DNA from: a virus
Length of the DNA stretch: 64,000 bases
Direction: 5' to 3' (one strand)
Virus genome (UHGV): UHGV-2113617
Part shown: in pieces, positions 21,878 through 63,918 of the stretch
How positions within the stretch are numbered: the first letter of the stretch is position 1
How the letters are laid out: every line of letters starts with the position of its first letter
Position numbers and translations under genes: made by a program
Notes under the pieces: generated by a model
What the model was told of the DNA's origin: nothing
The model's input: the letters and a program-made list of their open reading frames with translations, nothing else
The model's database searches: none

Positions 21878-22063
21878 TTAAAGCGTATTCACATAAGCTA
21901 TTAATTCGTTTTCTTTCTTATCAAACCGATCAGCAAATTCTTCCTGGTGTTCGGGAGATAGCGGGCCGTATTCATCATAAAAGGTGTTTGCTTCTGTATG
22001 CTCATCTAGAAGTTCATGGATAAGCTCAAACAATTTATCTTTTTGTTCTTTACTCAGACTCAT
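21878..22063 (-). CDS. hypothetical small protein
   Basis: 61-aa ORF. Confidence 0.5.
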   Translation of the reverse strand: MSLSKEQKDKLFELIHELLDEHTEANTFYDEYGPLSPEHQEEFADRFDKKENELIAYVNTL

Positions 22064-22233
22064 ATATTAATTTCCAGAAGTTTTAAAATAATTCGCTTTT
22101 GCTTAAATATTTCCATAGTTAAATGATCAGTATCTTTTTGACCAATTCCAATGGCAAAACCTTTATTAACAGCGAGTTCAATTAAATTATCAAGTTCACG
22201 TAACACTTCATATTGTAACTCAAAACTATTCAT
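22060..22233 (-). CDS. hypothetical small protein (absent from ORF track)
   Basis: 57-aa ORF MNSFELQYEVLRELDNL..., start/stop coupled to neighbours. Confidence 0.35.
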   Translation of the reverse strand: MNSFELQYEVLRELDNLIELAVNKGFAIGIGQKDTDHLTMEIFKQKRIILKLLEINI

Positions 22234-22442
22234 TTTGGTTTACCTTCTTTAACGAAATCAGGATAAGGATAAAATCCTGAATAAAATCCTTCGCCTTTAT
22301 GATTGATGCATCCTTTATTAGAGCAATAGCACCAATAATCGAAATCACAAGCCATTTCATCATTGCATAAAGCAAAAACAACTGGCCATTTACACTTTTC
22401 ACAATGTGCATTTTTAAGAATGCTAGTTTGGCTCATAACCAT
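22230..22442 (-). CDS. cysteine-rich small protein (putative zinc binding)
   Basis: about 70 aa with HCEKCKW...CNDEMACDFDYWCYCSNKGC. Confidence 0.45.
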   Translation of the reverse strand: MVMSQTSILKNAHCEKCKWPVVFALCNDEMACDFDYWCYCSNKGCINHKGEGFYSGFYPYPDFVKEGKPK

Positions 22443-22645
22443 GTAACCTTTAAGCAATATTCTTCTACATGCTGTTTACGACCTTTCTTATCAATAAAGG
22501 TATATTCAACGAATGTTCCAATATAGTCTTTATCTACATCATGTGGACTATTAATTGGGCATTTAGTACGGCAAATGCGTTCCCATTGACGAATAATTTC
22601 CACTTTGTTTTTAGGATCAAACGGATGCGGGTAATGTGCTTTCAT
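22433..22645 (-). CDS. hypothetical protein
   Basis: 70-aa ORF. Confidence 0.45.
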   Translation of the reverse strand: MKAHYPHPFDPKNKVEIIRQWERICRTKCPINSPHDVDKDYIGTFVEYTFIDKKGRKQHVEEYCLKVTWL

Positions 22646-23096
22646 AATCCACCACTATTAAATCAATATCAGGAGTAAACATGTCGATTAATTTAGAAAC
22701 CTTATCCCAATCACCGCCAGCAATACCACAACCTATGCGTGGAATGTAAATTACTGGTTTAAACAAAAGGGTTTCTGCCTGTAGATTTAATTCTATCATG
22801 CAGTTTACTAAAGCACCATAATCAAGATTAGGACCCGGTTCGTATTGTGTATACAGGTTATAGCATATACCAAATCCCGTAGGATTATGTTTAAAAACAA
22901 TAGACATATCGCCTAGTTTATCACGAGAACCGTACTCAGTAGTGGTTTTATCTATTTCTAAAATTTTAGGATAGGCCCTTGCTAATTGACCTGCTACACC
23001 TGAACCCATAGTATGAAAACAATTGCATCCGTGCGCAATAATATTACCTTGAAGAAATAGGGCGACAATATCGCCCTTGATATATTTTACAATCAT
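22617..23096 (-). CDS. macro-domain protein (ADP-ribose binding/hydrolase fold)
   Basis: 159 aa; GDIV...HGCNC...GSGVAGQLARA and C-terminal PRIGCGIAGG resemble macro-domain signature. Confidence 0.6.
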   Translation of the reverse strand: MIVKYIKGDIVALFLQGNIIAHGCNCFHTMGSGVAGQLARAYPKILEIDKTTTEYGSRDKLGDMSIVFKHNPTGFGICYNLYTQYEPGPNLDYGALVNCMIELNLQAETLLFKPVIYIPRIGCGIAGGDWDKVSKLIDMFTPDIDLIVVDYESTLPASV

Positions 23097-23979: not shown

Positions 23980-24441
23980 TCATTGAGTTTTAATTACTGC
24001 TTTAGAAGCCTTTCCTGGTAAACGACGACTGTTGATAATTGCCATCCTGCACTGAAGTGACGGGTCTTTGAACTTCTCGTTAGGTTTACAAACTGTAAAT
24101 CCAAGCCAAAGATTTCCATCTGTGATTTCTAAACGCCCAGGACGATATTCAACCCCATCAATAAAATCCTCATTAATGTCAGGACGCGGAGGCATACTCA
24201 GGAATTCATTAACTTCTAAAACATGGTCTTTTATTTTGTGGAATAATTCAAAAACATATGTCTCATCAATCTCCCGTTGAATTGCACGATCAAGAAGATG
24301 CTGAGAATATTTTAGATGAAACGATGAGACCCCTGCTGCTTTTGATGCCTCACGAATCTCATTGTTAATTTGACGAAACTCCGACTCAAAGTGACGACGG
24401 AGCTTATTTCGACGGATAAAAACTTCTGTGTTGATAGTCAT
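23980..24441 (-). CDS. regB: RegB-like sequence-specific endoribonuclease
   Basis: 153 aa in the regB position; identity from memory. Confidence 0.55.
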   Translation of the reverse strand: MTINTEVFIRRNKLRRHFESEFRQINNEIREASKAAGVSSFHLKYSQHLLDRAIQREIDETYVFELFHKIKDHVLEVNEFLSMPPRPDINEDFIDGVEYRPGRLEITDGNLWLGFTVCKPNEKFKDPSLQCRMAIINSRRLPGKASKAVIKTQ

Positions 24442-24468: not shown

Positions 24469-24498
24469 ATTATACCACAGTCAAGAGGAAAAGTAAAC
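24469..24498 (-). promoter_or_regulatory. T4-type early promoter
   Basis: GTTTAC, 18 bp, TATAAT. Confidence 0.6.
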
Positions 24499-24500
24499 AA

Positions 24501-24779
24501 TTATTCTTTAAATCTAATCAATTTATTCATAGACTTTGTAACTTCTGCACGAACCTCATGTAGGTTTTTGAGTTGCTCAAGACGCTGCTCATAGTAAGCA
24601 ATTTCATCTTCTTCGAGACAGTCCTGTGAATCTTCTTTAAGATAGCGTGCATAGTCCTGGAAAGCGTTACGGACTACTTCCTGGAAGTCATCAAGACTTT
24701 GAATTTTCTTAGGAGCAACAGATACACGACGAGGGGCAGTATAATACTCATAACCAAACCCTGCGCTTAATTGGGCCAT
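24501..24779 (-). CDS. hypothetical protein
   Basis: 92 aa from MAQLSAGF; TAATG coupling to upstream gene. Confidence 0.5.
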
Positions 24780-25045
24780 TAATATTTTTCCTCTGGTTGG
24801 AACACAGCACGACAAGCCCACATACTGGCTTCTTTGAGTTTCGTTTTAGCAATAGTTAACTGATCGAGACTTTCAGCATAATTCTTCGCGAATTCGCAGT
24901 CTTCACAATTATCTAGTGCTTCCCAGAATTCATCATATAAAGCATCAAAGATAAGCCCTAAACGAACTTCAGCATCTTTGATAGCATTCACTTTACCGAT
25001 TTTCTCTTCAGTATGTGGCTTATAACCCTTAATATCTTCAATCAT
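24779..25045 (-). CDS. hypothetical small helical protein (vs.4/Acb2 position, unverified)
   Basis: 88-aa ORF; assignment by synteny only. Confidence 0.45.
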
Positions 25046-25259
25046 ATTTTACTTCCTCACCAGTACCTAAATCATATTCAACTAAACGAATAGGTTCATG
25101 AATGCCATATCCCTGAACAGAAATTTCTGTCGTAGGATAAATTCCATCAATATCACCCATATTCCATGCTTCATTAAATTGCTGTTCGCCTGAATTACTA
25201 AACCACTCGGCGAAAGCATTTAGCACATCTTCAGAACCTTCAATAATTATCTTTGCCAT
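25038..25259 (-). CDS. hypothetical acidic protein
   Basis: 73-aa ORF. Confidence 0.5.
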   Translation of the reverse strand: MAKIIIEGSEDVLNAFAEWFSNSGEQQFNEAWNMGDIDGIYPTTEISVQGYGIHEPIRLVEYDLGTGEEVKYD

Positions 25260-25621
25260 TACAGACTCTCGGTAAAGGTACGAGCGATAACGTCGCGCTG
25301 CTGTTCCGGAGTCAGAGAGTTAAAGCGAACTGCATAACCGGATACACGGATGGTCAGCTGCGGATATTTTTCCGGATGCTTAACTGCATCTTCCAGAGTT
25401 TCGCGACGCAGAACGTTAACGTTCAGGTGTTGACCACCCTCGATTTTAACTGTAGGTTGTGTTTCAATTTCAATTTCACGGGCATGCAAACCATAGAAAA
25501 TTTCTGGGTCTACAAAAGAGTCCTCTTTAAAAGTTTTAGAGACAATAATTCTTGCTTGAATACCGTCTTCAAAATAAATAGTACCTTTATGCGTGCCTTC
25601 AAGAATTTGATATGCTTTCAT
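25259..25621 (-). CDS. autonomous glycyl-radical cofactor (GrcA/YfiD-like)
   Basis: 120 aa from MKAYQ; C-terminal ...[29 protein letters not shown] glycyl-radical motif; 3' half GC-rich and host-like. Confidence 0.85.
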
Positions 25622-25629
25622 ATAACCTC

Positions 25630-25959
25630 TCAATTAGAAAATAAATTTATCCAAGACTGTTCTTTAATTAAAAATGGCTCAGAATCATATGCCATTAAAC
25701 TTTGGGTGATTAGTCCTTTAAAAGGTCCATCAATAAATTCCATGGTAAAATATGGAATTTTATTCATTAATCTTGCATTAGGAGCAGTACACAAAACTCT
25801 GCATCCTTTGAATACGCCTTTTTGTAATTTGTATTGCTTAGGATAAAATTCGCTCAAGACGTTGTTATTTGCCAAAATTTCAAAATGATTCACCAATTTA
25901 TTTTTAATAGTTTTTGGCGAAAAATAAAGATATTCGAAAAGCTGCGTGTCTGTCATCAT
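25630..25959 (-). CDS. hypothetical protein
   Basis: about 109 aa from MMTDTQ. Confidence 0.5.
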
Positions 25960-26495
25960 TGCATTCCGATTACGAAAAACTGCGGACGAGTAATACCACC
26001 GATGCAACAATTACTATTGCAGCAGTGTTGTACAGTGTCAATATGGACGCTATAAATCTTATCCATATCAGGAGATTTAACAGGCTCATCGATTATATAC
26101 AAAATCCGCGAAAGCGATAAACCTCTGAACTTGCTTCCTTTATTACCGATAAAACTACGGACAGAATCGGTAAATAAACGAAAACGTATACCATCATTAG
26201 AATAACGCGAAAATTCCTTTTTAATGTTATTTGCAGAAATTTTAGCGTAAGCTGAAGTATTAGAAAGAACAATAACTGTTCCACCGTCATACAACCAATT
26301 AGCGGCAAAATTAGTTACTGCAGTTGATTTACCGGATTGACGTCCACCATCTAGTCGAAGTGTGCAATACTGCTTAAGTAAGTCTTCAAATGGCGGGATA
26401 TATTCGTTTTTACAAATTTCTTCTACTCTAGCATCAGAATGGTGTGTAAAAGCATTCATCAGGGATAGATAAGGACCAGTTAAAAATGTTCTCAT
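25956..26495 (-). CDS. small P-loop NTPase
   Basis: 179 aa from MRTF (GAGAGAATAAA RBS); Walker A GGRQSGKST, Walker B ILYIIDEP. Confidence 0.55.
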   Translation of the reverse strand: MRTFLTGPYLSLMNAFTHHSDARVEEICKNEYIPPFEDLLKQYCTLRLDGGRQSGKSTAVTNFAANWLYDGGTVIVLSNTSAYAKISANNIKKEFSRYSNDGIRFRLFTDSVRSFIGNKGSKFRGLSLSRILYIIDEPVKSPDMDKIYSVHIDTVQHCCNSNCCIGGITRPQFFVIGMQ

Positions 26496-26510
26496 TTTAT
26501 TCTCTCTAAA

Positions 26511-26579
26511 TTTGGGCCATTCCATGGCGCATGAATTGTCCATTTCTGTATTTACCCATTACCGCACTTGGGCTCGACC
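26511..26579 (-). repeat. 5' UTR element copy A (degenerate)
   Basis: about 75% identical to 27107-27176; TTTGGG(C/A)CA...GCATGAATTGTCC...ATTACCG. Confidence 0.6.
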
Positions 26580-26734
26580 TTATTACAGGTTGGCGGGAAT
26601 CCCTCACAGAATCATGAGGTCCAGCTTGTTCCCATGTTATTTGAATGTAAATATTTTTGCCTTAATACTTATACCAGTGTGGCTTCGTTAAAATTTTTCA
26701 TCGAGTCATTTTACCTCTCCAAGTAATTATGAAT

Positions 26735-26764
26735 ATACTATCACAATTTTAGGAGAAAGTAAAC
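26735..26764 (-). promoter_or_regulatory. T4-type early promoter
   Basis: GTTTAC, 18 bp, TAGTAT. Confidence 0.6.
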
Positions 26765-26766
26765 TG

Positions 26767-62293: not shown

Positions 62294-63918
<1,625 letters not shown>

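Follow-up and report, generated by a model that had tools for sequence, protein, structure and literature searches.

Predicted Acb2 and TadIV-1 immune-signal sponges, and the conserved small protein Vs.5, in the vs.5-vs.3 block of a T4-like phage genome

Introduction

What is encoded by the three overlapping small open reading frames (ORFs; 92, 88, and 73 aa) that occupy the minus strand at 24501-25259, between regB and the grcA-like gene vs.6, of the 64-kb stretch of DNA analyzed here (hereafter the window)? The original prediction placed three coupled ORFs of these lengths at the T4 vs.3-vs.5 position, a few genes from regB as in T4, and proposed the 88-aa helical protein as a candidate for T4 Vs.4/Acb2. 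Both the coordinates and the overlaps held on reanalysis, and the region is almost certainly, as judged from sequence comparisons, the vs.5-vs.4-vs.3 block of a T4-like phage, in which Vs.4 would be the Acb2 sponge and Vs.3 the TadIV-1 sponge. The biology of these two sponges is already known (Acb2 since 2023, TadIV-1 since April 2026), and none of our analyses returned a result contradicting either identity. The third protein, Vs.5, is a different case, as our literature search found no paper on its function.

Results and Discussion

Organization of the block and its genomic setting

The three genes are tightly packed (Table 1). One base is common to the stop codon of vs.6 and the start codon of vs.5 (TAATG at 25257-25261), vs.5 and vs.4 overlap by 8 nt, and one base is again common to the stop of vs.4 and the start of vs.3 (TAATG at 24777-24781). 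GAGGA-type Shine-Dalgarno sequences precede both vs.4 and vs.3, and vs.5, vs.4, and vs.3 would on this layout be translationally coupled. We take all three ORFs to be real genes rather than chance ORFs because tblastn matched their products in many phage records (1236 for Vs.4, 989 for Vs.5, and 663 for Vs.3), and because the nucleotide changes in vs.4 relative to T4 are all synonymous. An alternative 106-aa form of vs.3, starting from a GTG at 24821, was considered and rejected: T4 is annotated with the 92-aa ATG form, which the TadIV-1 paper also adopts, and this start is also preferred because of its GAGGA Shine-Dalgarno and its overlap with the vs.4 stop.

Table 1. Position of the genes, promoters, and other features discussed in the text, numbered from the first base of the window.
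Feature	Position	Strand	Description
vs.3	24501-24779	-	92 aa from ATG, 10.9 kDa, pI 5.2
vs.4	24779-25045	-	88 aa, 10.2 kDa, pI 4.7
vs.5	25038-25259	-	73 aa, 8.2 kDa, pI 4.05; acidic alpha/beta protein
regB	23980-24441	-	Immediately downstream of vs.3
regB early-type promoter	24469-24497	-	TTTACT, 17 nt, TG-extended TATAAT; from promoter scan
Candidate early promoter upstream of vs.8	26735-26764	-	GTTTAC, 18 nt, TG-a-TAGTAT; read from sequence
vs.8	25956-26607
ipII stop to vs.8	26608-26766		Includes ~130 nt of denV remnant
tk.1-tk.4 block	21878-23096		Mosaic relative to T4
Extra ORF in tk block	22230-22457		75 aa
Extra ORF in tk block	22060-22233		57 aa
Second T4-lysozyme-like segment	39567-40064	+	43% identical to gene e

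At a broader scale, the window is collinear with T4 (mobD.5/rI, tk, vs, vs.1, regB, vs.3-vs.8, ipII, ipIII, e, nudE), and this synteny from rI to nudE agrees with the placement relative to regB given in the original prediction. No sequence record matched the window exactly, and the closest one over 22 kb reached 95.7% identity at 94% coverage. Because the top match goes no higher, the genome is best described as that of a mosaic Tequatrovirus (i.e., T4-like) distinct from T4 itself.

Two other parts of the window deserve a mention. The tk.1-tk.4 block is mosaic relative to T4, with tk.2 and the macro-domain protein tk.4 respectively 54 and 58% identical to their T4 counterparts, no match to tk.1, and two extra ORFs (Table 1). 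Further along, on the plus strand, lies a second segment similar to T4 lysozyme, which we take to be the lysozyme domain of the baseplate hub protein gp5.

Promoters and the putative vs.8-vs.3 transcription unit

Two promoters frame the cassette. The first, an early-type promoter for regB, lies in the 59-nt gap past vs.3, is identical in sequence in T4 and phage P8, and marks the 3′ edge of the coupled vs.5-vs.3 block. The second is a candidate early promoter upstream of vs.8, which falls below the threshold of the promoter scan tool and whose T4 homologue precedes denV. No terminator-like site was detected by the scan on the minus strand from this vs.8 promoter to regB, and Chen et al. relied on “the promoter of vs.8” to express Vs.3-Vs.8 (PMC13243611). 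Given these two elements and the start/stop overlaps between genes, vs.8-vs.7-vs.6-vs.5-vs.4-vs.3 probably form one transcription unit driven from the candidate promoter, and regB would then restart from its own promoter after vs.3. For T4, a transcriptome atlas places vs.4 predominantly in the middle/late class.

The surroundings of vs.8 differ from those in T4. The endonuclease V gene denV is missing throughout the 64-kb window, and the interval between the ipII stop and vs.8 retains only ~130 nt: the denV promoter and Shine-Dalgarno, ATGACTCG with a stop after it (MTR*), and, in diverged form, part of the denV 3′ end. With denV deleted, the early-type promoter of T4 denV now sits directly upstream of vs.8. 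Phage P8 has its denV at another site, between e and the ip genes. Relative to T4, vs.8 also carries a 7-nt indel at its 5′ end, so that the first ~30 codons of the 219-aa T4 annotation fall in another frame; the longest in-frame vs.8 ORF in the window is 195 aa, and its conserved body begins with MRTFLTGPY, possibly the true start of vs.8 both in this phage and in T4.

The 88-aa protein Vs.4 is identical to T4 Acb2

Comparison with PDB sequences identified the 88-aa protein as T4 Vs.4 over all 88 residues (PDB 7UQ2, phmmer E-value 1.9e-57), and tblastn likewise gave 100% identity to the T4 reference (NP_049728). Residues 7-83 match the whole 58-position profile of the Acb2/Tad1 hairpin family (Pfam PF24729) at 71.4 bits (E-value 7.1e-20), far above the curated cut-off of 27 bits. 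At the DNA level, nine differences separate the gene from its T4 counterpart, all nine of them synonymous, and the relative P8 has its vs.4 annotated as “anti-CBASS protein 2.” The similarity to Acb2 anticipated for this protein was thus recovered by both phmmer and Pfam, and the candidate assignment is upheld by the 88/88 identity and the family match.

The T4 protein is well-characterized. It binds cGAMP, as measured by ITC, crystallizes as a hexamer holding three cGAMP molecules, and keeps the CBASS effector CapV inactive by acting as a sponge; Huiting et al. gave it the name Acb2 (PMC10449767). Several cyclic di- and trinucleotides are reportedly bound by both the T4 and the PaMx33 Acb2 (bioRxiv 10.1101/2025.07.23.666291). 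It also binds 2′,3′-c-di-AMP and thereby triggers the defense system Panoptes: 14 of 15 T4 mutants escaping Panoptes map to acb2/vs.4, a Y8A substitution gives no Panoptes activation in a co-expression assay, and the F82C escaper shows diminished 2′,3′-c-di-AMP binding (PMC12657218). Both residues whose mutation impairs function, Y8 and F82 (T4 numbering), are present in the Vs.4 of the window.

In comparison to known systems, the window thus holds the same protein as T4 (PDB 7UQ2; Jenson et al., 2023, Nature; Huiting et al., 2023, Cell) in the same slot between vs.5 and vs.3, and the only departure is the set of nine synonymous changes. The Acb2 of Pseudomonas phage PaMx33 (“p26”; 8H2J, 8IXZ) belongs to the same Pfam family, has a similar length (~92 aa), and aligns over residues 4-85, but is very distant in sequence (phmmer E-value ~0.03) and comes from an unrelated phage lineage. 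Accessory slots of T4-like phages are often mosaic, as illustrated here by tk.2 and tk.4 (54-58% identity to T4) and by the deletion of denV, so an unrelated small helical protein devoid of cyclic-nucleotide binding could in principle have come to occupy the Vs.4 slot. The complete identity to both the crystallized T4 protein and the T4 reference, together with the 71-bit match to PF24729, leaves this idea a vanishingly small probability, and we consider it already refuted because of the sequence identity to T4 Vs.4. The 88-aa protein is thus Acb2, a cyclic-oligonucleotide sponge acting against CBASS, with an activity predicted from its identity to the T4 protein.

The 92-aa protein Vs.3 corresponds to TadIV-1

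The function of T4 vs.3 was recently established by Chen et al. (Nat Commun, April 2026, PMC13243611), who found the gene through a T4 × T6 mating assay, confirmed it by deletion and complementation, and described its product as the only inhibitor of type IV Thoeris in T4. This product, TadIV-1, sequesters N7-cADPR, the signal made by the TIR protein, so that the caspase-like effector is not activated (PMC13243611). The protein is a two-helix homodimer whose binding pocket is formed by a disordered N-terminal loop and helix alpha-1 of the partner subunit, with R17, R18, and K24 important for binding N7-cADPR in the T4 version; among homologues, only the long ones (>80 aa, about 90 aa) are active, and the short ones (~70 aa) are inactive (PMC13243611).

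The 92-aa protein of the window, which lies where the original prediction put it and whose TadIV-1 role had not been foreseen, is identical to T4 Vs.3 at 90 of 92 positions (97.8%). It is a long form carrying the N-terminal loop, its residues 1-25 are identical to T4, and R17, R18, K24, and K25 can all be read from the sequence. Like its T4 counterpart, the gene sits in the slot upstream of regB. The two differences from T4, T64E and S81T, lie within the helical portion, and the active protein of phage UPEC07 likewise has E at position 64. A phmmer search against the PDB aligned Vs.3 over its full length to chain A of 9WIW, the UPEC07 TadIV-1 (E-value 6.9e-38), which differs by nine extra residues in its N-terminal loop. 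For Vs.3, the only Pfam match was Tex_N, at 19 bits and thus below its cut-off of 32, which we took as noise.

Database names would suggest another reading, with the 92-aa protein acting in RNA processing as a relative of RegB and not as a sponge for an immune signal. The phage P8 homologue is labeled “endoribonuclease RegB T4-bacteriophage encoded” (L002, 3602-3880), the molecule name of PDB 9WIW is “Endoribonuclease,” and vs.3 lies directly upstream of regB. However, the paper behind 9WIW describes an N7-cADPR-sequestering two-helix homodimer and reports no nuclease activity (PMC13243611), and Pfam assigns no RegB or nuclease domain to Vs.3. The “endoribonuclease” names borne by Vs.3 homologues in several records look like a carry-over from the neighboring regB, and we regard a RegB-related role as highly improbable. 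The 92-aa protein is thus TadIV-1, a sponge for N7-cADPR directed against type IV Thoeris, this activity being expected from its near-identity to the T4 protein. It should be noted that phage T2 is sensitive to type IV Thoeris although it encodes a functional TadIV-1 (PMC13243611), and the presence of the gene is therefore no guarantee of the phenotype.

Vs.5 is longer than annotated in T4, and widely conserved

The 73-aa ORF corresponds to Vs.5 (PHROG 1986), for which the T4 reference lists only 58 aa (NP_049729) and shows a gap between vs.5 and vs.4. DNA alignment indicated that one C is missing from the reference after codon 16 of vs.5 (at about position 63,508 of NC_000866), and that the reference is translated out of frame beyond this point. 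When a 79-nt reference segment was used as a megablast query, this 1-nt deletion was found only in X04567 (the original 1980s sequence), AF158101, and NC_000866, while the extra base was present in ten other T4 or T4-derived genomes and ~210 relatives. Because the deletion is confined to these three records, we conclude that the T4 reference lists Vs.5 at 58 aa through a legacy sequencing error, and that its true length is 73 aa. The original prediction gave the ORF at 73 aa and had not anticipated that this is the true length of Vs.5. The T4 gene shares the same start codon overlapping the vs.6 stop, and once its frame is restored its product differs from that of the window by D63V and G65C only.

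Homologues of Vs.5 in the 989 matching phage records (about 990 Straboviridae; tblastn) extend down to ~41% identity, and an alignment of 28 sequences revealed invariant positions that include W19, G24, E25, Q26, E30, G50, V60, E61, and E69. An AlphaFold2 model built from this 28-sequence alignment (mean pLDDT 87.4) suggests a long helix spanning residues 10-33 that packs against a small sheet. This model resembled no solved structure, Vs.5 showed no likeness in structure or sequence to the solved sponge families listed by Chen et al. (Tad1, Tad2, Acb2, Acb4, sequestin, and lockin) or to TadIV-1, and Foldseek against BFVD retrieved only uncharacterized phage homologues, some with a C-terminal extension. 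A profile search against 1.8 billion representatives recovered a few small and distant phage-like homologues sharing a W-[FM]-S-N-S-G-E-Q-x-F motif. The same search also returned long FG-GAP/VCBS repeat proteins that match only WF-N-G-Q-F-E, with five to nine repeats each; these were rejected as convergent, because the corresponding region of Vs.5 is predicted to be helical and the repeats are presumably beta-propeller blades. Matches to UvsW_N in Pfam (14 bits against a cut-off of 25) and to DeoD in NCBIfam (12 bits against 230) were likewise considered as noise.

Several homologues depart from the 73-aa architecture. C-terminal extensions bring the protein to 114 aa in Klebsiella phage K65_evo6 and to 156-163 aa in the BFVD matches, and in one metagenomic homologue (P0039) the first 47 aa are of Vs.5 type and joined to an unrelated C-terminal segment, which by eye looks like a peptidoglycan-binding domain.

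Possible roles of Vs.5

Vs.5 is always found in the vs.8-regB cassette, alongside the Acb2 sponge and, in phages that have it, TadIV-1. Vs.5 might be a third counter-defense protein, of a fold not described before, that either soaks up some other immune signal or blocks a defense protein stoichiometrically, although we consider this rather unlikely. When Chen et al. expressed Vs.3-Vs.8 singly, Vs.3 alone inhibited type IV Thoeris (PMC13243611). The frameshifted 58-aa annotation in T4 may be part of the reason why Vs.5 has been overlooked.

Gene order offers a second angle. T4-type phages have the order vs.7-vs.6-vs.5-vs.4, and two more distant Tevenvirinae, Karamvirus Entb_43 (L003, 3001-3237) and K65_evo6 (L004, 3001-3345), have vs.7-vs.5-vs.6-vs.4; no Vs.3 homologue was detectable in these two phages. 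Vs.5 hence adjoins vs.6 in both orders and loses its adjacency to vs.4 in the second, as would be expected if it were a partner or chaperone of the glycyl-radical cofactor Vs.6 (GrcA-like) with no counter-defense role. However, these are only two arrangements of one compact cassette in which all genes sit close together, and the analysis revealed no link, by structure or by sequence, between Vs.5 and glycyl-radical enzymes or their activases, which makes a partnership with Vs.6 improbable in our view. The rest of the probability goes to some other small host-takeover function. Our best guess, held with low confidence, is that Vs.5 is a small binder of a host or defense component.

Predicted mechanism and implications

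The biochemical activities of Vs.4 and Vs.3 are inferred here from their identity or near-identity to characterized proteins and from the conservation of key residues. Under this model, both proteins would work by stoichiometric sequestration of immune signals and not by catalysis. A Vs.4 homohexamer would bind 3′,3′-cGAMP and related cyclic di- and trinucleotides, so that the CBASS effector (e.g., the phospholipase CapV) stays off, with the liability that binding of the decoy 2′,3′-c-di-AMP would trigger Panoptes. In a Vs.3 homodimer, the flexible N-terminal loop and helix alpha-1 of the partner would hold N7-cADPR, the TIR product of type IV Thoeris, and thereby keep the caspase-like effector off. 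As each sponge would bind the diffusible second messenger of an abortive-infection system, the expected outcome is a higher threshold for effector activation.

This phage is thus predicted to be resistant to cGAMP-type CBASS and to type IV Thoeris, and sensitive to Panoptes, which senses Acb2; such assignments are relevant to the prediction of host range for T4-like therapeutic phages. Two by-products of the analysis are the error in the T4 reference Vs.5 and the recognition of Vs.5 as a widely conserved neighbor of two sponges. Should Vs.5 turn out to be a third counter-defense protein, the cassette would represent a small anti-defense island.
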